NCBI GenBank assembly: GCA_002726275.1
Contig: PBSO01000025.1
Location: forward strand, 2,147-66,146
Length of the DNA stretch: 64,000 nucleotides
Direction: 5' to 3'
From: Methanobacteriota archaeon
GTDB taxonomy: Archaea; Thermoplasmatota; Poseidoniia; Poseidoniales; Thalassarchaeaceae
Positions 39,079 to 49,732 of this stretch are shown here, piece by piece. Position 1 is the first letter of the stretch. Each line of letters begins with the position of its first letter. The position numbers were made by a program, and so were the translations under genes. The notes below the pieces were generated by a model, which saw nothing but the letters and a program-made list of their open reading frames with translations, was not told the DNA's origin and ran no database searches.

Positions 39079-40647
39079 CTATGCCTCATCTGGTATGTAG
39101 AACAAGTCCACACTACCCGTTCCAAGTGCTATTGGCTGCCCCACAACAATATTCTCGGTGACTCCCCTGAGTTCGTCTCTCTCACCGATTATTCCCGCTC
39201 TGAGCAAGTGGGTAACTGTAACCTCGAAGGCCGAGCGAGCCAATATGCTGTGCTTGGTACCGCTTACTCCATGCCTACCTATAGCCCTAACTTCACCTTC
39301 GCTAGTCATAACGTCTGAGACCATCAGAAGATGTCTGACATCGACATCCAATCCCGCCCCTTCTAGAGTGTCGCTCATCTCGTTTATTATTGCCTGCCTA
39401 GCAGCCTCTATTCCGAGGTACGAATGAATCTCATTGATGTTGTTCGTGTAAGTCCTTGAGCGATCTATGCCTGCGAATTCGCTCACCTTGGCAAGGTTCG
39501 ATCCTATGGTCGAGATGTAGTACTCCCCGTTCTCACCAGCTTGGACATTTGCCCTCTCTATGCCCCTGATTCCCTTCAACTGTAGTTTCTTTATCTTGTC
39601 CTCCAGTTGCAAAAGATCCGTGTATGTCGGCGGATCCGTGGCAAGAGTCTCCAAGTCTTCCTCTTTGGAGACACCAGGGATTATCTTCAGTTCCTTCGGC
39701 TTATCATCTGAGTCCGCCTGTATGAACAGCCTAAGGGCCCTCTGAAGCTTGTCCCTAACTTCGGCGCCAGACATATTCTTCAGACGCATGTTGGAGTTGT
39801 TTAGTTTCAGGCTAAGGTAACGCTGTGCTACCTCGACATCAATATTAGCTATGTCACTGGTTTTTGTTGCCTCCAATCCGGCGGCGATTCCCCTGACTAG
39901 TTTCTCATTCGTGCGAAGTGGCTTGCCTTTGGAATTAAATTCCTCTAGGAAAATTCTCATTGTAGGGGTATTGGGGACCTTACGGGCATCGACAATTTCA
40001 ATGATCCTCGGAAGGCCCTGTGTTACGTTAACGGTAGCGACACCCGCATAGTGGAATGTTCTCATGGTCATCTGAGTACCAGGCTCCCCGATTGACTGAG
40101 CCGTGGTGATGCCCACGGCTTCATGGGGATCTGCTTTGGACCTCCTGAGGGATGACCTAGCAGACTGAATGACCTTCCTTGCCTTTGCAGGAGTAATCTT
40201 GGAGTTCCCACGGGACCTTATCCCCTCAGTTAGGTCTGTGAGCATCCTAGGAGTCAGAACGAGTCCTTCCCCCTCGCAAGCGGAGGCGAGTTGAGCATAG
40301 ATTTCGTCATGGTGATCGATGTCCCTCATTACCTGTACCATCTTGGATTCCGAATCATAGGTCTGGAGTGGCATCATTGACTTACGCCTTCGACGTGAGG
40401 CGGCCGACTTTCTGCGCACTACCGTCTTCTCTGTCGAGACGGCGGCCCTGGATGACTTGGTAGACGCCGCCATTAGATCATGTATCCTCTGAGCGGTTCC
40501 TGAGTCGATTCCGCAGATCTGGGCTATTTGTCCTGCGGTGAGGACCTTGACATCGTCCCACTTCCTATCATCTGCCAGTTTGTGAGCATATTCCTCATCT
40601 ATCTGGAGATCCATTAGTTTCTTCTTTGTTGCACTCTTGACTACCAT
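39079..40647 (-). CDS. rpoA2: DNA-directed RNA polymerase subunit A'' with ~125-aa N-terminal HhH-like extension
   Basis: Core [37 protein letters not shown] is the canonical A''. N-terminal [27 protein letters not shown]...[20 protein letters not shown] is an extra domain with a helix-hairpin-helix-like motif followed by an Arg/Ser-rich basic stretch. Confidence 0.9.
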
Positions 40648-43600
40648 CAGTTAGCACCTCCCAATGCATCGTCTAGGACCTTGGAAACGTCGAACGGCAT
40701 TCCCCCTCGGCTACGTGCTGGATCGACTCCGTCCTCACCATATTCGAACTGAATGATTCTGTCGGCAGTGTTCCTAACCGAACCCATGCCGTCGTTCGCG
40801 ACCTTCAAGTCGTCCATGGCGTTGATTAGCCTTCTTTGCATGTATCCAGACTTCGCTGTTCGGACCGCGGTGTCGACTAGCGACTCCCTTCCGGATACCG
40901 AGAGCATGAAGAATTCGGTTGGTTCCAGGCCCCTCTTGAATGAAGAGCCGACGAATCCTTTCTCCTGAGCGCCCTTGGCATTTCGGGGGAAGTGAGAGAG
41001 AACACGGTCTTGGTAACCACGCTCAAGGCGCTTTCCTCGAACCTTTGGTTGGCCGATAGAACCTGCCATCATGGCTAGGTTGTCCATCGAACCACGAGCT
41101 CCTGAGGTCGCCATGAGAACAGCCGAGTTATCGTCTCCAAGGTATGTCTTCGCTATGTTTCCTGATTCGGTTTTGGCCTCGTCCAGAATCATCAATATGT
41201 TCTCCTCCAATGTCTCCATGGGAGTCCTGCCGGGCCTTGTCTCGTACTTCCTCCCGTCCTTTCCGAACTTCGCTAGCTCCTCATCCACTGCATCGCTACC
41301 ATTCTTGTTGATCTTTGCAATCTCTGACTTCGCCTCCGGAGGGAGGTCTTCATCGTCGATTCCCGTGGTGAATCCCATCGAGGTACATATGGAAATTGTC
41401 ATCCTGGTCATCCTGTCTAGGAATTCAGCACCGGCGTCCGGGCCGTGTGTGTGGACTACGGCATCCAGTAGCCTTCCATCCTCAGCGCCTATTCCCCTCT
41501 TGTCAATAGTTCCCGAAACATCGCCCTTGGTGACCTTCACATTATCGCCAATCCTACTGATGTAGTCTAGGTTGAAGCCTTCTGGAACAATTAGGCTCAG
41601 AACATCGCTTCCTCGATATCCGATCACCCCATTCTCTTCCACCTCTGGAGGCAGTTCCCCGTCCCAGTTTGTATCCCCTAGGACCTGCATTACCAAATTC
41701 TTCGGCAGAACTCTATCGCCGTGTGTAAGCAAGTAGGCTCCTGAAATGTGGTCGTGTATTCCACCGATTACGCTTCCACCGTACCTTGGTGTTATGATGT
41801 GTTCTTGGACTCTCATCAGAATCTTCGCCTCTGCTCTCGCCTCTTCGCTCTGAATGACGTGGAGGTTCATCTCATCGCCGTCAAAATCGGCATTGTAAGG
41901 AGTACAATCAGCTAGGTTGAATCTGAAGGTCTTTCCAGGCATGACCCTGACCTCGTGAACCATCATCGACATCCTGTGAAGAGATGGTTGCCTATTGAAG
42001 AGGGCGACATCGCCGTCAATCAAGTGCCTCTCCACTATCACACCTGGCTTTGGGTTCCCATCCAAGTCGTGAGTGCTGAGCCTGTCCTCGACATCGGTAC
42101 TGTATGCGTTGCCATAGTCATCCTCTACTTCTGGGCTGCCACAATGAGGGCACTTAACCTCTAGATGATCGGGCAGGTATTCTCCGGGATGCTCCATCTC
42201 CCACTTCCACCTCTGGTGAATAGAGGCTCGTTGATCGCCGTCAGGGAGGGGCAATCCCCTCTCGTCCTCGCCCCTGAGGTTCCTGAGGGTCATGTCCAGA
42301 TCGACCCCCCACTCCTCCTCCAAATCACCAATTGAATTTCTCCTCATTTGCCTCATTAGTTCGAGTCCTGGTAGGAAATTTGGTGCGGGCAGCACTTCAT
42401 TCAAGTCAGGCCTGTATCCAGTATATGGCTCGTCGTCACTACCGGAGTGGCACTCAGGATTAAGACACCTGAAGCCAGACCAGATAAACTTCGTTCGATC
42501 GGTTATCCTGACTCTGAACTTATCCCCCCTGATGATGTAATTTACACCTGGGTGAACGTCTGGGCCTCGTAGAATCATCTGCCTTAGTTGCTCCCTGTTC
42601 CTACTCGTGACACGGATAGGAACGGTGAGCTCCTTGGCCGTCTGAGTAGGTATTCCGACTTCGTTAATCCCCAAGTTTGGATCGGGGCTAATCACTGTTC
42701 GCGCACAGAAGTTCACTCTCTTTCCTGAGAGGTTGCTCCTGAATCTGCCCTCCTTACCCTTGAGCCTCTGTGCGAGGGTCTTCAGTGGCCTTCCAGACCT
42801 GTGTCTTGCAGGCGGAATTCCGCTAGTTTGGTTATCGAAGTAAGTGGTACAGTGATATTGCAACAACTCCCACAAGTCTTCAACAATAAGCTGGGGCGCG
42901 CCTGCGTCTCTGTTCTCCCTGAGTCGCTGATTAATCCTAAGTACGTCAACTAACTTGTGAGTCAAGTCATCTTCGGACCTGTCTCCACTATCGAGGGTGA
43001 TGGAGGGTCTTACTGTGATTGGCGGTACTGGAAGTACTTTCATTATGACCCACTCTGGCCTTGCTGCATCCTTGTCCATGCCAAGGAAGATGAGGTGTTC
43101 ATCGGGAATCCTCTCCAGCCACTCCCTAATGTCCCGGGCATTGAGCTTGTGCTCACCCTTGTTCTCTTTCTTCTCCTTGAATGTCGATGGCTTGTCCAGT
43201 ATAATTTTACCCTGTTCGCTACCACAGTGCATGCAAATCGTCCTCTTCTTGCTGGAGCACTCCTTCTCTATGTCTTTGATGACATTCTTGAATTCGGAGG
43301 AACCGACGCCGTGCTTGATCATTACATCCTTAACTCTCTCTTCATAATAATCCTGCTCAGACTTTTCTGGGTCCACTGGATGGGTTTCTGGTTTGTCATG
43401 AAGGAGAATCTTACTGCATGTGTTGCATGTAGACTTCAGTGAAGTCTTGATTAGATTCGTGAAACCGATGTGCATTACTGGGAGCTCTAGTGCGATGTGC
43501 CCAAAGTGACTGGGGCACTCATCGTGCTTGTTTCCACATGTCTCACATCTCACACCTGGGTCGATAACACCCATCTTAGGATCCATTAGTCCTTGCTTGT

Positions 43601-43739
43601 AGGGATGTCCGTCGTCTTTGTAAGTATCAGCGGTTTTCACCTCGACAGAGGACATTTTCCTAATTTCATTTGGATCCATAAGCGTGAACTTAATCGCCTC
43701 AATCCTCTTTGGAATCTTTGCTGCATTTCGGGCACTCAT
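40647..43739 (-). CDS. rpoA1: DNA-directed RNA polymerase subunit A'
   Basis: 1030 aa. Zinc-binding N-terminus [20 protein letters not shown], catalytic [10 protein letters not shown], clamp/dock regions. Confidence 0.95.
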
Positions 43740-46700
43740 CTTCGGTCCTCCAGTTCGAGTCTCATAGCGACTCCCAAACTCTTCATCTCATCGAGAAGTA
43801 GTTTGAACGCGTATGAAGTCTGTACGGAGTGGACGTCCGCTCTGTCTCCACAAGAGGGACAGACCGTAGTCCTCCTCTTCCAGTCGTAGTATGCGATGTG
43901 CCCACACCTAGGCGTGTTGCACACCATCAGTGGCCAGCCGTCGGATTCATCCAGAAGCCTGTCCTTTATCACCATGGACGCGCCATGGGAAATCAGACAG
44001 TCTCTCTCCATCTCCCCAAACCTGAGGCCTCCCTGCCGGGCTCTACCCTCAGTTGGTTGCCTTGTAAGAATCTGGACCCTTCCCCTACTTCTGGCATGCA
44101 GCTTACTGCTTACCAAATGATGGAGTCTCTGGTAGTAAATTACTCCTACGAAAACCTCTGCCGGATATTGTTCCCCGGTCTCCCCACTAATCATGTTCTC
44201 TCTTCCCGTGTGGTTAAATCCGTTTCTCAGAAGTCCTGATCTCAGGGACTCCTCCTTCTCACCCGTGAATGCGGTTCCATCTATTCTCCTTGCTTCCATT
44301 GCACCGACCTTTCCGCCGATCATCTCGAGGACGTGGGCTACCGTCATTCGGGACGGGATGGCATGGGGATTGATGATTAAGTCGGGAACCACTCCATCGG
44401 CTGTGAATGGCATATCAGACTCCTCCACTATCCTTCCAATGATTCCCTTCTGCCCGTGCCTACTGGCGAACTTGTCTCCCAGTTCTGGAATCTTGTTTGT
44501 CCTTAGGGTGATTCTTACCAACCTGCCAGAGTCCAACGATTCTGTGACAAACACGTTGTCGACCCATCCATGTTCTCCATGTCGGACCATCATCGATGAC
44601 TCCCTTCTCTCCTGTGCCTGAAGGAATGCGCCATGTGCCTCTTCTAGGAATCTAGGAGGGCTGGTCTTTCCGACCAGTACAGCTGAGTCAGAGCCGCCGC
44701 TGGTCAGGAACTCTTCTGGAACGGGTAGTCCGTCCCTCTCCAAGTGAGAGTAGCTATCGAATGATTTCATGCCCTTAATTTCGTCAAGGCCGGTACCAGG
44801 AACCTCTATCCTCTCTTCCTGGCCACCAGGGAATCTGCGATTTTCAGCGTTGTATGTTCGTATGAAGGTAGACCTTCCCAATGCCCTCTCAATTGAGGCC
44901 TTGTTCATGACAACTGCGTCCTGCATATTGTAACCATGATGGCTCATTATTGCGACGACCAAATTCTGACCGCCTGGCCTACTGTTGAAGTTGGTGGTGT
45001 CCATTGCACGTGTTCCAACGAGAGACCTCTGTGGGTAGTGCATTATGTGGGCCCTTGTATCGGGCCTTAGCCTGTAGTTAGCACTTGGTAGACCTAGGCT
45101 CTGTTTCACCATCGCCGTCCCCCCAGTTACTCTCGGAGTGGAGTTGTGTTCCGGGTATGGAACCAGTGCTGCACATACGCCCAGAATGAGTTGAGGATCA
45201 ATCTCAACATGGGTGTATACGAGAACCGTATTGCCCTTCTTCTCCTTCTTCTTGAGGGCCTCTACGTCGTCCTGATGATAATTCAATGGAACTGAGAACT
45301 TCTCAGTAACTGTAGTGCCATCTGGTAATTTGACCTCCACAGATAGTTTGGCTTTGGAAATCTCCTCATCACCGAGGTTCAGCCACGTTACCTTTGATGG
45401 ATCCATGGGGCGCTTATTCTTGGGTGACAATTCTGGGAGATCGAAGGGTCTTGGTGCCACGAGAAGGTCCTCCTCCTCCTCTGCATCGACCCATTCAACG
45501 ACTCCTGACGAAACCAAGTCCGAGAATGTTATCTCTCCCGACTCAAGCCCTTCCAAGTGGAATTTAGAGAGTGTCAATGTACCGTCCTCCAATACCAGCA
45601 GTGGTCGCATAATTCGGCCCCTGTCCGTATTGATGTATACATCTCTATTCTCAGTGTCGTGCCTGATGCTAACCTCAGGCCTGATTCTTCCTGATCTGCG
45701 TCGGCGCTTGAATTGGGAAACTAGTTTGTTGGGCCTCTTGTGCAGTCCGAAGATATCGCCATTTACGTGGATTCTAGAGCCGTCGGCCCATCCCTCTGGG
45801 CTCGGGTCAACTCCTGCCTCAACAAGTAGCTCCTTGACATCAGCCTCTGGAACTTCCTCCGAAACGTCAATCATCTGTGCCGCGTTCTTGACGAGGCCGC
45901 AATTTTGCCCCTCAGGAGTCTCGTTGGGGCAGAGCCTACCCCAATGAGTAGGGTGCAAGTCCCTGGCCTCGAAGTGCGGTTGACTCCTAACTAGTGGACT
46001 AGTGACCCTGCGCATGTGTGAGAGCGAGGCCAGGTAAGTCGTCCTATCCAGAAGCTGGCTCACACCTGATCTTCCTCCGACCCAGTTCCCTGTAGCCAAA
46101 GCGTGCATTATCTTGGATGTCAGAACATCGGGCCTGAGGCAGGAATTTATCTTGAGTTCCCTCTTTCTGTTGTGGTGCCTCTCAAGTTGGTACTTCAGGT
46201 CCCTAGCGAGTCCTTGTACTCCTACCCTAAACAGGTCTTCCATCAGGTCCCCTGCTAAGCGTACTCTCTTGTTCGCGTAGTGGTCCTTGTCATTTGGGTC
46301 CCTATTTGTTATAGCCATCTCAAGAACCTGACGAACTATCCTTCCAAGGAATATCGCCTTCTTAGTCCTGACCTCATCATTGGACCCCAAGTGAGGCAGT
46401 AGCTCTTTGTCGAGGAGGTTCTGGATTCGCGACTCCCTGTATTCCTTCTGCTGACCTGCAGCGAATTTCTTCTCCAACCAGGCCATTGCCTCCTCTGTAT
46501 TGTCAACTCCGTATTCGGGATTGTCCTTGACATCATTCAAGTTAGCTACAGTGTACTTCATTGCCTCCACAGGACCAGCTATGGCAGAGAAAATGTCCCT
46601 GTCATTCTCCATCCCTAGTGCCCTCATGAGCAATACTACGGGGATGGCAGTTGTTCCTGCACTTGGAATCTTGACCATCAGCATTCCATCTCTACGCTTT

Positions 46701-47452
46701 TCTACATTGATGGGTTTCCTGACACCGTCTTTCTGGGAGAATATCTTTGCTACTTCTGTCTCGTGTGCGTACTTCTTGTTCTTCTCAACGGTTACTCTGT
46801 TGGGAGCCAGGTCCTCCATTGAAATTAGGACTCTCTCGGTCCCATTGATTATGAAATAACCTCCCGGGTCTAGCGGATCTTCCCCCGCCTTTCTCAAAAG
46901 TTGCTTCAGGATATCGGCATCTTCTGGGATGGTTGTTGGAGAAAGCTTGCGGGACTTCTCTTGTGTCCCTGCAATGTGATCCGGATGTAGGTTGCATCTA
47001 GCTGAACGGACCATTATTGGAAGGTTTCCTATGTGGACGCTTTCTTCCTCTATGTATCCCAAGTCCGCTCCTTCAGTAGTGGGCAAATCGTCCCTGTAGA
47101 TTCTGAAATCCATGTAAATTGGGGAGAAATATGTTAGTTTCCTTAGTCTGCACTCAAGGGGTGTTGCGGGATGCTCTGCACCGTTTGCCTCTCGAACGGT
47201 GGGTGCCCCCAGCCTAATTCCCTTCATCCTGATGTATATCTCCTTGTCTAGGACGTCAAGCTTGATCATTCCTCCTGATTCTTCCCCTCCGGGAACCTCC
47301 TCGAGAGGATCATCACTGCCAATCCTGATGCCCCTTACAATTCTCTCCATCCTACTGGCTCGGCCATCCCCTGGAATGCAATCATTGTATGATGCAAGTT
47401 GGTGATTAACCATGCTTCTGTGCGCGAAATAACTCTTTACTATCTCCTTCAT
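43736..47452 (-). CDS. rpoB: DNA-directed RNA polymerase subunit B (unsplit)
   Basis: 1238 aa single ORF covering both B'' and B' regions. GEMERDCLISHGA, C-terminal zinc ribbon CNTPRCGHIAYYDWKRRTTVCPSCGDRA. Confidence 0.95.
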   Translation of the reverse strand: MKEIVKSYFAHRSMVNHQLASYNDCIPGDGRASRMERIVRGIRIGSDDPLEEVPGGEESGGMIKLDVLDKEIYIRMKGIRLGAPTVREANGAEHPATPLECRLRKLTYFSPIYMDFRIYRDDLPTTEGADLGYIEEESVHIGNLPIMVRSARCNLHPDHIAGTQEKSRKLSPTTIPEDADILKQLLRKAGEDPLDPGGYFIINGTERVLISMEDLAPNRVTVEKNKKYAHETEVAKIFSQKDGVRKPINVEKRRDGMLMVKIPSAGTTAIPVVLLMRALGMENDRDIFSAIAGPVEAMKYTVANLNDVKDNPEYGVDNTEEAMAWLEKKFAAGQQKEYRESRIQNLLDKELLPHLGSNDEVRTKKAIFLGRIVRQVLEMAITNRDPNDKDHYANKRVRLAGDLMEDLFRVGVQGLARDLKYQLERHHNRKRELKINSCLRPDVLTSKIMHALATGNWVGGRSGVSQLLDRTTYLASLSHMRRVTSPLVRSQPHFEARDLHPTHWGRLCPNETPEGQNCGLVKNAAQMIDVSEEVPEADVKELLVEAGVDPSPEGWADGSRIHVNGDIFGLHKRPNKLVSQFKRRRRSGRIRPEVSIRHDTENRDVYINTDRGRIMRPLLVLEDGTLTLSKFHLEGLESGEITFSDLVSSGVVEWVDAEEEEDLLVAPRPFDLPELSPKNKRPMDPSKVTWLNLGDEEISKAKLSVEVKLPDGTTVTEKFSVPLNYHQDDVEALKKKEKKGNTVLVYTHVEIDPQLILGVCAALVPYPEHNSTPRVTGGTAMVKQSLGLPSANYRLRPDTRAHIMHYPQRSLVGTRAMDTTNFNSRPGGQNLVVAIMSHHGYNMQDAVVMNKASIERALGRSTFIRTYNAENRRFPGGQEERIEVPGTGLDEIKGMKSFDSYSHLERDGLPVPEEFLTSGGSDSAVLVGKTSPPRFLEEAHGAFLQAQERRESSMMVRHGEHGWVDNVFVTESLDSGRLVRITLRTNKIPELGDKFASRHGQKGIIGRIVEESDMPFTADGVVPDLIINPHAIPSRMTVAHVLEMIGGKVGAMEARRIDGTAFTGEKEESLRSGLLRNGFNHTGRENMISGETGEQYPAEVFVGVIYYQRLHHLVSSKLHARSRGRVQILTRQPTEGRARQGGLRFGEMERDCLISHGASMVIKDRLLDESDGWPLMVCNTPRCGHIAYYDWKRRTTVCPSCGDRADVHSVQTSYAFKLLLDEMKSLGVAMRLELEDRR

Positions 47453-47462
47453 CTATTGCACC

Positions 47463-48086
47463 TCAATTACTCTCCACAATTAGTCGGTAGGCCGTGGTAG
47501 CACCTGCTGACCTACTATACCTCACAACTTTCACGACCCTGTTCCTGAGCCAACCCGCTGGGAAGTCATCCTCCCTGGTCCCCCCTGCTATCTCATTCCT
47601 TCTCTTTTCTTCCTCGATTTCCTTCAAGGCCTGTACAGCTGGATCTGTTATGAGTATCTTGGGCAGTAGCTCCTTGGCCAATCGGCTGTTGCCCGAATTG
47701 TCCTTTTCTAACAATCCCCATGGAGAGAGGATGTCTTCCTCGTCATCCTCTGGAACTAGATCATGATGGGGGACTAGTTGGTGGTTTAGAACGTTGAATC
47801 TATCATCGCCGACTGGTATGTCTTCATCCAGAAGAGCGCTCCTGGATATTGTTATCCTCCCCGCTCTACTCCTCCTCCTCGAGGCGGCTTGCTCCCTTAT
47901 GATTCCCATAATGTTGTCAATATCAGCTGAGCCAGTCTCGAGATCGGTTTTCTTGGCGACTTCTTCGACTGTCATCCTCTTGATGGCATCCATATTCGCA
48001 TCATCAGCGAGTTTGTGGGCGTGCTCCTCGGAGACACCGAGTTCTATTAGTCTCTTTTTGGTTGAACTTTTGACTGCCATGCGCAC
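47463..48086 (-). CDS. rpoH: DNA-directed RNA polymerase subunit H (Rpb5-like) with ~95-aa N-terminal basic extension (HhH motif weak or absent) and an internal insert
   Basis: C-terminal NVLNHQLVPHHDLVPEDDEEDILS...ITDPAVQALKEIEE...VVKVVRYSRSAGATTAYRLIV matches RpoH (HELVPKHE...DPV.K.LGA.PGDV.KI.R.S.TAG....YRLVV). N-terminal MRMAVKSSTKKRLIELGVSEEHAHKLADD... parallels the rpoA2 N-terminus. The position aligned to the rpoA2 HhH hairpin reads KKTDLETGSADI, which is not a clear HhH. The H-like region carries an acidic/charged insert (GLLEKDNSGNSRLAKELLPK...EIEEEKRRNEIAGGTREDD). Confidence 0.75.
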   Translation of the reverse strand: MRMAVKSSTKKRLIELGVSEEHAHKLADDANMDAIKRMTVEEVAKKTDLETGSADIDNIMGIIREQAASRRRSRAGRITISRSALLDEDIPVGDDRFNVLNHQLVPHHDLVPEDDEEDILSPWGLLEKDNSGNSRLAKELLPKILITDPAVQALKEIEEEKRRNEIAGGTREDDFPAGWLRNRVVKVVRYSRSAGATTAYRLIVESN

Positions 48087-48129
48087 TCCCCCTCCAGCAA
48101 AAACAGGGGCCTAGTGCTTCGTTCAGGAG

Positions 48130-48203
48130 AGGGCCCGGGGGGATTCGAACCCCCGGCCACCGGGTTAAAAGCCCGGTGCTCTACCTGACTAAGCTACAGG
48201 CCC
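48130..48203 (-). tRNA. tRNA-Lys (anticodon UUU)
   Basis: Minus-strand read GGGCCUG-UA-GCUU-AGUCAGGUA-GAGC-A-CCGGG-CUUUUAA-CCCGG-UGGCC-GGGGG-UUCGAAU-CCCCC-CGGGCCC-U. Canonical cloverleaf with one G-U pair in the acceptor stem. No encoded CCA. Sits immediately upstream of rpoH. Confidence 0.7.
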
Positions 48204-48358: not shown

Positions 48359-49732
48359 ATGAAAATGGGAAAAACAAGCCGCAATGCGGACATATCAAGA
48401 GGCACTAAGGTTGTTGATTTCAGCGTTGGTGAGAATGGGCCCTGGAGATTGACTATCCCACGAACGGTTTATCCCCCAAGAGAAGACACAGAGCTTCTTG
48501 CAGAGGCTTTGTATTCTCTCGACATTATGCCATCCCTAGCGGTCGAAATTGGATGTGGCTCAGGTGCACTTTCGATCATTTTGGCAGAGTTAGGATGGGA
48601 AGTATTGGCGTACGATGTTAACCCCTATGCAGTTGCATCTTCGAGATCGAATGTTGAGGAACATGCCTTATCGAATAAAGTGTCGGTGTTTGAAGGCGGC
48701 GTGGGTGAAAATAATTGGTCGATACCAGAGGGCGTAAAACTTCTGATTTGGAACCTGCCATATCTAGAGCCGTCAGATGGCCCGCTAATTCTTGAGCCGA
48801 TTGAGGAGGCCTCAATGGTCGATATCCCCAATGGAGGCTGGTCTTCCAAACTAATTGGTACGGCCGAAAATCATAAGGAGGACGGATTCATCATCATTCT
48901 TCTAATGAGAACTGACCCAGAAAGTCCGAGCAAGAGAGAGGATTGGTTGTCCAGAGGATGGTCTTGTAGAGAGCTAATGAGCCTCAGAATTGCTGATGAA
49001 AAGATAGGTGCATTCGCATTCTGGAAGCCGGGTTCTGGAATTGGAGCTGTTACCCTCGATGAGTGCGGGTCGACTATGGATGAGGCAATCAAGCTCGCAG
49101 AATCCGGGTGGCAGAGAGTTAGGGCGGATAGGCAGCTGCTTGGAAGAGGCAGGAGGGGTTCCACTTGGGAGTCAGAGATAGGGGATCTGATTGCAACTTG
49201 GAGAGTTCCCGTGAATAAGGAATCTGGGGCCAATCATGGTTTGATTCAAATCGCTGCTGGTAGTGTGATATCCAAAGGTATTGGATGCAGAGTAAAGTGG
49301 CCAAACGACCTTATTGACGCCAGTGGGAAGAAGTTGGGCGGAGTTGTATCAGAGACATCTAGCAAGGAAAAGGGGATGAGGGTCGGGGTTGGCATCAACT
49401 CGGAACCTAGAGATGTTGGCGGGAATGAGGCCTCGGGCTGGTCTGAAACACTCGGAAAAACTGACATTGATGCCGTTTTCGGAATTGTTGATGCCTCACT
49501 ATCGGGAATCTTGGAGAATATACCAGGACTGCCCGTTCTGGGTGGAGATAAACTCCTAGAAATATCATGGAGGGGTTTGTCCACCTCCCTCTCAGAGGGA
49601 GCTTTCCCCTCAACTGCAAGTGGGATGGAGAGGGTTGTAGGGCTGGATACTGATGGGGGTTTGATAATTGAGTCCAGGGGGGCATTATCGGTCATCACCG
49701 ATGTGGACGAGCTTGTGTGGCTATTCCCCTAA
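48359..49732 (+). CDS. fusion protein: HemK/PrmC-like SAM-dependent methyltransferase (N) + biotin--protein ligase BirA (C)
   Basis: N-terminal VYPPREDTELLAEAL...AVEIGCGSGALSIILAE (SAM motif I)...LLIWNLPYL ((N/D)PPY-like motif IV). C-terminal TLDECGSTMDEA...RQLLGRGRRGSTWESEIGDL (BirA GRGRRG-x-W motif), KWPNDL, GVGIN. Single uninterrupted 457-aa ORF. Confidence 0.6.
   Translation: MKMGKTSRNADISRGTKVVDFSVGENGPWRLTIPRTVYPPREDTELLAEALYSLDIMPSLAVEIGCGSGALSIILAELGWEVLAYDVNPYAVASSRSNVEEHALSNKVSVFEGGVGENNWSIPEGVKLLIWNLPYLEPSDGPLILEPIEEASMVDIPNGGWSSKLIGTAENHKEDGFIIILLMRTDPESPSKREDWLSRGWSCRELMSLRIADEKIGAFAFWKPGSGIGAVTLDECGSTMDEAIKLAESGWQRVRADRQLLGRGRRGSTWESEIGDLIATWRVPVNKESGANHGLIQIAAGSVISKGIGCRVKWPNDLIDASGKKLGGVVSETSSKEKGMRVGVGINSEPRDVGGNEASGWSETLGKTDIDAVFGIVDASLSGILENIPGLPVLGGDKLLEISWRGLSTSLSEGAFPSTASGMERVVGLDTDGGLIIESRGALSVITDVDELVWLFP

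Follow-up and report, generated by a model that had tools for sequence, protein, structure and literature searches.

What are the N-terminal extensions carried by two RNA polymerase (RNAP) subunits of a marine archaeon, and what might they do for the enzyme? The question was raised by a 64,000-nucleotide stretch of Poseidoniales DNA (Thalassarchaeaceae; assembly GCA_002726275.1, contig PBSO01000025.1, positions 2,147–66,146; hereafter the window), in which an original prediction had described a 207-residue RpoH open reading frame (ORF) and a 522-residue RpoA'' ORF, both extended at the N terminus. The ORF listing, Pfam and NCBIfam models and the lengths of solved chains all agree with that description. 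We found that the Poseidoniales RNAP bears two paralogous ~62-residue modules of five predicted helices, one at the N terminus of subunit H and the other at that of A'', each attached through an Arg-rich linker.

The extension of RpoH had been said to parallel that of RpoA'', and pairwise alignment confirmed this: the two N termini share 36% identity over ~60 residues (E 1e-10), and, by sequence, the extensions are homologous. The resemblance claimed at the DNA level is also real, as the strings originally quoted are present and the first 102 nucleotides of rpoH and rpoA'' are 70% identical. These are the only copies of the module in the window, both by tblastn (E ~1e-13; next matches E > 1) and in a hidden Markov model scan of all window ORFs. 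The homology of the two extensions may reach into the tether that follows the module.

The remainder of each protein is a recognizable polymerase subunit. Rpb5_C (PF01191) matched RpoH at residues 97–203 only, with 46.3 bits against a gathering threshold (GA) of 23.5, and TIGR02389 matched RpoA'' at residues 131–516, with 426.6 bits against a cut-off of 420.65. The NCBIfam equivalog model NF007129 scored RpoH at 47.4, below its cut-off of 83, a shortfall to which two inserts in the core may contribute. Solved archaeal RpoH chains in the PDB are 77–82 residues long and aligned only to RpoH residues 94–205, covering both ends of the core (1hmj, 4qiw_H); solved A'' chains are 391–397 residues long, and their alignment began at RpoA'' residue ~121, which corresponds to Pyrococcus residue 8. 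The model limits and these alignments together therefore place the extensions at ~93 residues in RpoH and ~113 in A''. No Pfam match at E ≤ 1 to either Rpb5_N (PF03871) or the RNA_pol_Rpo13 family (which we take to be PF12136) was found in RpoH, and the element is fused rather than a separate subunit. The charged insert noticed earlier within the conserved domain of RpoH is present, but it is one of two. The AlphaFold2 model of the core shows insert 1 as a beta hairpin and insert 2 as an extension of a helix. Insert 2 is conserved less than any other part of the protein (pairwise identity 0.30) and in the window's clade is 10 residues longer (EKRRNEIAGG) than in most other Thalassarchaeaceae.

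Are the fusions genuine? The N-terminal segments might have been small genes of their own, fusions produced by frameshifts or a chimera of the assembly, an artefact that we now regard as vanishingly improbable. One genome per GTDB species was scanned in a genome collection whose sample was Poseidoniales only, giving 122 relatives, of which 80 (64–96% identical, labelled Poseidoniales, Thalassarchaeaceae, Marine Group II (MGII) and so on) were kept. At every locus containing the RpoH N terminus in these 80 species genomes, module and RpoH core occupied one stop-to-stop ORF; an rpoA'' ORF of ~523–542 codons starting with the module was present at 61 of the 62 loci that reached rpoA'', the exception (L027) being cut at 301 codons. 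Hundreds of full-length RpoH proteins of 193–216 residues exist in the databases, annotated simply as RpoH or as ‘RpoH/Rpb5 C-terminal domain-containing protein’, and the exact RpoH protein of the window is present in an independent NCBI assembly. What could be taken as a sign of artefact is that many database matches to the module are short (47–139 residues) with frameshifted tails, but these ‘homologues’ from the first protein searches proved to be contig-end fragments or to come from error-prone long-read assemblies. Continuous ORFs in independent genomes, full-length RpoH proteins and the purifying selection described below rule out separate genes, frameshifts and chimerism alike. In the distant Poseidoniales locus L082, a 1.87-Mb long-read contig, gene calling split rpoB into three and both rpoA' and rpoA'' into two; the breaks look like uncorrected long-read frameshifts, and such errors may explain many of the short matches with out-of-frame tails.

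The same extensions, which the original prediction proposed to look for in other MGII RNAP operons, occur lineage-wide, with both fusions present in Thalassarchaeaceae and Poseidoniaceae. A divergent lineage that has both fusions encodes an RpoH of 216 residues, 52% identical to that of the window, and a ‘Candidatus Poseidoniaceae archaeon’ protein falls in the same cluster. Because both MGII families carry the fusions, the duplication and both fusion events predate the MGIIa/MGIIb split. Over 74 distinct RpoH genes, the ratio of nonsynonymous to synonymous substitution rates (dN/dS) was 0.09 in the module, 0.14 in the tether and 0.10 in the core, values that are qualitative because dS was saturated; by this measure all three parts are under purifying selection. 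RpoH residues 1–28 form the most conserved stretch of the protein except for a short core segment (residues 136–152).

An AlphaFold2 model of the module, built from a 20-sequence alignment of both paralogue types, contained five helices (residues 6–14, 18–27, 30–35, 38–45 and 52–70) with a mean predicted local distance difference test (pLDDT) score of 77, rising to ~83 in the core; this and the other models rest on shallow alignments (20–23 sequences). In the model of full-length RpoH, the module (residues 4–67, pLDDT ~78) and a confident core (105–205) were separated by a segment (68–103) with pLDDT below 50, and the tether of ~35 residues is thus predicted to be disordered. Two tether motifs hardly vary among relatives, R-[IV]-T-I-S-R and D-I-P-x-G-D-D-R-F, and T77 and I78 do not vary at all. 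The A'' linker has an analogous strand-like basic motif ([TK]-[IV]-V-R-R / V-R-L-x-[KR]) followed by L-P-L-Q-x-Y-D. The conserved tether motifs look like strand-forming or docking segments.

The module begins with an invariant basic helix, K-S-x-T-K-K-[KR]-L, and continues into a hairpin that resembles a helix-hairpin-helix (HhH) motif. This first motif (residues 11–25; L11-x2-L14-G15-[VI]16-x4-A21-x2-L24-A25) is kept in both copies and fits the HhH consensus h-x-x-h-x-G-h-G-x-x-x-A-x-x-h-h except at the second Gly, where S, E, D, P or A stands instead. A clear HhH had been reported in the RpoA'' copy only. That holds for the second HhH-like motif, the one noticed at the time, whose Gly is absent from the RpoH of the window (TDLETGS) and retained in most relatives (VGLESGA), but not for motif 1. 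The extension had also been called basic, which is correct for residues 1–14 and for the 35 residues that follow the module, whereas residues 15–62 are acidic (about −4). Averaged over module-bearing database proteins, residues 1–14 carry a charge of +3 and residues 15–62 one of −4 to −5, and the 35 residues after the module carry about +3 in RpoH and +8 in A''.

The assignment to the HhH family on the strength of the RpoA'' hairpin was not upheld. HHH_5 (PF14520) scored 15.2 bits (E 0.031) against a GA of 27, and in RpoA'' only, with no significant match to any HhH family; among 21 module sequences, the HhH profiles (HHH_5 and HHH_2) matched only one even at E ≤ 1. A profile of the module had no significant match to Pfam or to all PDB sequences. 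Foldseek ranked SAM-like/(HhH)2 classes highest, although without significance (best E 0.36; template modelling scores 0.54–0.61), the best structural matches being protein–protein SAM domains, and a search of the viral fold database BFVD returned nothing significant. Related domains of these classes, including the C-terminal repeats of NusA, XPF/ERCC1, Hef, the TopoV repeats, the N-domain of RadA/Rad51 and SAM domains, all have curated sequence thresholds that the module misses, and it differs from them in its degenerate hairpin (G-[VI]-x in place of G-h-G), acidic body and invariant K-S-x-T-K-K tail. The module is a new sequence family without a Pfam model, and the structural comparisons point to a predicted fold of the SAM-like/(HhH)2 class. 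The module may bind nucleic acid, but the fold by itself cannot distinguish a DNA ligand from a protein ligand.

The positions of the two subunits on the enzyme suggest a role. The original prediction placed RpoH and RpoA'' near downstream DNA, in line with published work: H associates strongly with A'' and makes up the lower jaw together with A' and A''; in initiation complexes it cross-links to DNA between +10 and +20, and open-complex formation requires it (PMC2847245). The ~130-residue jaw of the eukaryotic counterpart is missing from archaeal Rpo5, which exposes a positively charged groove beside the clamp head; this groove is occupied by the Rpb5 jaw in eukaryotes and by Rpo13 in Sulfolobales, where the Rpo13 tail lies ~7 Å from DNA at +8 (PMC2675907). 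Rpo13 is located at the N-terminal part of Rpo5 (PMC13257274). Because H and A'' form the lower jaw by downstream DNA, and the addition to H would leave the subunit at the Rpb5-jaw/Rpo13 site, we propose, as a reading that falls a little short of an even chance, that the modules are tethered arms at the DNA-entry face that contact downstream DNA. Contacts to the backbone of the downstream duplex would be made by the basic N-terminal helix, the hairpin that resembles HhH and the Arg-rich tether, and the acidic body would possibly pack into the positively charged groove that lies between H and the clamp head; open-complex formation and early elongation would thereby be stabilized.

Consistent with this proposal are the homology of the extensions, their conservation under purifying selection, the basic residues 1–14 and linkers, and the nucleic-acid- or transcription-related nature of other fusion partners described below (TFIIB cyclin, Zn ribbons, a sub-cut-off C2H2 finger and a defence ATPase). 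Several observations weigh on the other side, together with the missed family thresholds. The hairpin lacks the second Gly of G-h-G and is followed by acidic residues; the net charge of −4 to −5 in residues 15–62 recalls the protein-binding acidic HhH repeats of NusA; and the first ~30 residues are conserved across unrelated carriers far beyond what non-specific DNA binding needs. Furthermore, the position of the module on the enzyme is taken from other species, and the structure models come from the shallow alignments noted above.

These unrelated carriers came to light when 1.84 billion representative proteins were searched exhaustively with a module profile, which returned only 203 module clusters. 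Nearly every one of the 150 clusters listed had the module at or near the N terminus. Tails other than RpoH and A'' fell into 11 multi-member families and roughly two dozen singletons, and hardly any of them matched Pfam; in most of the at least 25 unrelated tail groups the module starts at residue 1, with residues 1–34 nearly invariant and the remainder diverging (carriers include P0214, P0226, P0249, P0225, P0210, P0231, P0254, P0422, P0410 and P0420, and loci L083, L084, L086, L089, L090 and L092–L097). One carrier, P0207 (193 residues; L091:314-895, on a contig of only 970 nt), is a TFB-like fragment in which the module is joined to one TFIIB cyclin repeat (PF00382; 25.9 bits, GA 23.6); the tails of P0210, P0231 and P0288 are rich in cysteine and match zinc-ribbon or C1 models weakly, below threshold. 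P0236 (851 residues; L098:1012-3567) is a defence-type ABC/OLD-family AAA_15/AAA_21 ATPase with an internal module at residues 92–161; it matched the defence families NsnB (2e-38), AriA (7e-17), PDC-M55A and GajA (PADLOC) and has a weak, sub-threshold C2H2 zinc-finger match. Most non-RNAP modules were nearest to the A'' type. The modules of P0210, P0231, P0208 and P0286 were nearest to the MGIIb RpoH type (47–71% identity; 71% for P0210 and P0231), and those of P0236, P0254 and P0275 to the MGIIa RpoH type, that of P0236 being 68% identical to the Poseidoniaceae RpoH version.

The long contigs that encode carriers (61, 87, 116 and 160 kb) consist almost entirely of unidirectional ORFans, interspersed with genes for Mom, ERCC4, PCNA, ribonucleotide reductase (RNR), ParA, dCMP deaminase and PNK, and with a terminase-like ATPase (phrog_2666, 8e-16). 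A pair of neighbouring module genes was found in L092/L093 (10001-10483 and 10534-11007), and one module-cluster member came from a Tara <0.22 µm fraction. This gene content suggests that the carrier contigs are large viruses or other mobile elements of Poseidoniales. Searches of 20 carrier-contig proteins against PHROGs matched only the terminase-like ATPase, a thymidylate-synthase-like protein and a PNK-like protein. An IMG/VR scan with the module alignment gave 30 pattern matches, none of them confirmed, and scans with the L094 terminase-like ATPase and the L093 PCNA found no relatives there. In INPHARED, tblastn with the module, P0214 and the L093 PCNA gave no match, and the RNR search recovered only generic phage RNRs (35–37% identity). 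With so few PHROGs matches, and with no relatives found in IMG/VR or INPHARED, it is only a suggestion that these contigs are viral. Magrovirus ‘group D’ elements, whose nature is uncertain, have been reported to encode an RNAP A subunit (PMC5434244).

Finding the module on so many unrelated proteins means that a specific role in docking must be taken seriously as a rival to a DNA-binding ‘jaw’. The module might be a handle for protein docking, a SAM-like interaction domain for a specific conserved partner, which could be another copy of the module (H-type with A''-type), the RNAP surface or a transcription factor, such that H and A'' would form a recruitment platform; virus-like elements would use the handle to reach that partner and take over the host polymerase, and the defence ATPase would carry a bait or sensor. 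We give this perhaps one chance in three. The acidic body and SAM structural matches point in this direction, as do the placement at residue 1 and near-invariant start of the module across tail groups. The nature of its carriers fits as well: ORFans on 61–160-kb contigs with PCNA, RNR, ERCC4, Mom and a terminase-like ATPase, a TFIIB-cyclin protein, and the NsnB/AriA-like ATPase, with both paralogue types and both family-specific RpoH variants having relatives outside the polymerase. However, a widely used DNA-binding domain would show an equally promiscuous distribution, the module adjoins Arg-rich linkers and Zn-binding, DNA-type partners, and the contigs are only putatively viral, with no module found in IMG/VR or INPHARED. 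DNA contact and docking are not mutually exclusive; the bacterial alpha C-terminal domain (alpha-CTD) binds both DNA and regulators. A more elaborate version, which we think unlikely, places the handle in a host–virus–defence triangle of Poseidoniales, in which the polymerase would display two copies, dozens of otherwise unrelated effectors of virus-like elements, the TFIIB-cyclin protein among them, would use theirs to dock on the polymerase where DNA enters or to compete there, and the RpoH-type copy in the NsnB/AriA-like ATPase would act as bait.

Two further explanations appear much less probable. That the module binds nascent or structured RNA, as the SAM domains of Vts1 and Smaug do, or a chromatin protein, would be compatible with its fold class, but H and A'' lie on the DNA-entry side, far from the RNA exit (PMC2847245), and no RNA-binding family was matched; we rate this a long shot. 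Equally doubtful is that the extension is passive filler, stabilizing the assembly of a polymerase that has other insertions and binding no ligand of its own. In favour of this, the ~148-residue insertion in RpoA' and the two RpoH core inserts indicate that the enzyme is generally decorated, but a packing element needs no disordered tether of ~35 residues, and the same module on many unrelated proteins would go unexplained.

How do tethered arms at downstream DNA compare with known systems? To our knowledge, lineage-specific additions at this site are known only as the eukaryotic jaw and crenarchaeal Rpo13. The Rpb5 jaw is packed on the enzyme and spans ~130–140 residues, whereas the Poseidoniales element is predicted to be a 62-residue five-helix bundle on a disordered tether; it is duplicated on A'' and has no match to Rpb5_N. 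Both are N-terminal additions to the same assembly domain (RpoH being equivalent to the Rpb5 C-domain) in the lower jaw, and contact with downstream DNA, here proposed by inference, has been implicated for the Rpb5 jaw (PMC2675907, PMC2847245); the Poseidoniales extension is an independent, convergent acquisition. Rpo13 of Sulfolobales and Desulfurococcales is likewise a lineage-specific, small, helical element of DNA-binding type with charged tails, but it is a separate helix-turn-helix subunit reported to be absent from Euryarchaea (PMC2675907), whereas the Poseidoniales module is covalently fused, has another predicted fold, occurs in two copies and has no Pfam match. In logic, the two flexibly tethered domains proposed here resemble those of the bacterial alpha-CTD; the latter are C-terminal on an assembly-platform subunit, reach upstream DNA and share no sequence similarity with the modules, which are N-terminal on lower-jaw subunits and on the downstream side. 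Archaeal RpoH has been stated to have no N-terminal extension (PMC3906176), and we found no description of an extended RpoH or RpoA'' in MGII/Poseidoniales in the searchable literature. Lineage-specific accretions on polymerase subunits are already known as a kind; new here are the sequence family, its duplication on two subunits, the tethered architecture and the sharing with putative mobile elements.

The coordinates of the RNAP genes and their parts are listed in Table 1.

Table 1 Features of the RNAP operon in the 64,000-nucleotide window
Feature	Position	Strand	Description
rpoH coding sequence	47463..48080	-	205 residues from the conserved ATG; the ORF listing gives GTG 48086, 207 residues
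RpoH module (residues 1–62)	47895..48080	-	Basic N-terminal helix, HhH-like motif 1 (residues 11–25), three further helices
RpoH tether (residues 63–93)	47802..47894	-	Arg/Ser-rich; R-[IV]-T-I-S-R and D-I-P-x-G-D-D-R-F
RpoH/Rpb5_C assembly domain (residues 94–205 and stop)	47463..47801	-	PF01191
RpoH core insert 1 (residues ~123–135)	47676..47714	-	
RpoH core charged insert 2 (residues ~153–174)	47559..47624	-	
rpoA'' coding sequence	39079..40647	-	522 residues; TIGR02389
RpoA'' module (residues 1–62)	40462..40647	-	Paralogue of the RpoH module; two HhH-like motifs
RpoA'' linker (residues 63–113)	40309..40461	-	Ser/Ala/Thr-rich, then V-V-R-R-K...R-R-R-R-K, then conserved L-P-L-Q-x-Y-D
rpoB	43736..47452	-	Between the two module-bearing genes
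rpoA'	40647..43739	-	Between the two module-bearing genes
tRNA-Lys(TTT)	48129..48203	-	49 nt upstream of rpoH, same strand

On the minus strand the operon reads tRNA-Lys–rpoH–rpoB–rpoA'–rpoA'', an order shared with L082, with rpoH directly upstream of rpoB and the stop of rpoA' overlapping the start of rpoA'' in TGATG. The ATG at 48080 is the likely start of rpoH, because the N terminus MAVKSS is conserved in RpoH relatives (M-[AV]-V-K-S), some genomes have a stop codon immediately upstream, and GGAGGGGGAG lies 5–14 nt upstream of this ATG; the GTG at 48086 was rejected as a start on the grounds of the relatives' N terminus and upstream stop codons.

Other subunits also depart from their usual form. 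RpoA' (1030 residues) has its insertion at residues 418–565 (window 42045..42488, minus strand) relative to the A' of Pyrococcus, Thermococcus and Saccharolobus, between positions that align to Rpb1 residues 428 and 429, presumably in the Rpb1 dock region; the insertion has the motifs CLNPEC and CPHCGS, perhaps those of a zinc ribbon. RpoB is unsplit and, at 1238 residues, is longer than usual. Divergently from rpoH lies a plus-strand gene (48359..49732, 457 residues) that fuses a methyltransferase-like domain (MTS/PrmA, weak) to a biotin/lipoate protein ligase domain; its position is kept in L001 (1355-2722), an independent assembly with identical RpoH, and in L082 (783-2213).

Poseidoniales (Marine Group II) rank high in abundance among the archaeal orders of the surface ocean. 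If the modules do act as tethered arms at downstream DNA, this order would represent a third solution to the same architectural problem, a duplicated, tethered module of predicted SAM-like/(HhH)2 fold on both lower-jaw subunits, and would offer a natural experiment on how the handling of downstream DNA by polymerases evolves. That virus-like elements and a defence-type ATPase also carry the module provides a testable lead on how uncultured marine archaeal viruses may engage host transcription, and the module family could serve to flag such elements in metagenomes.
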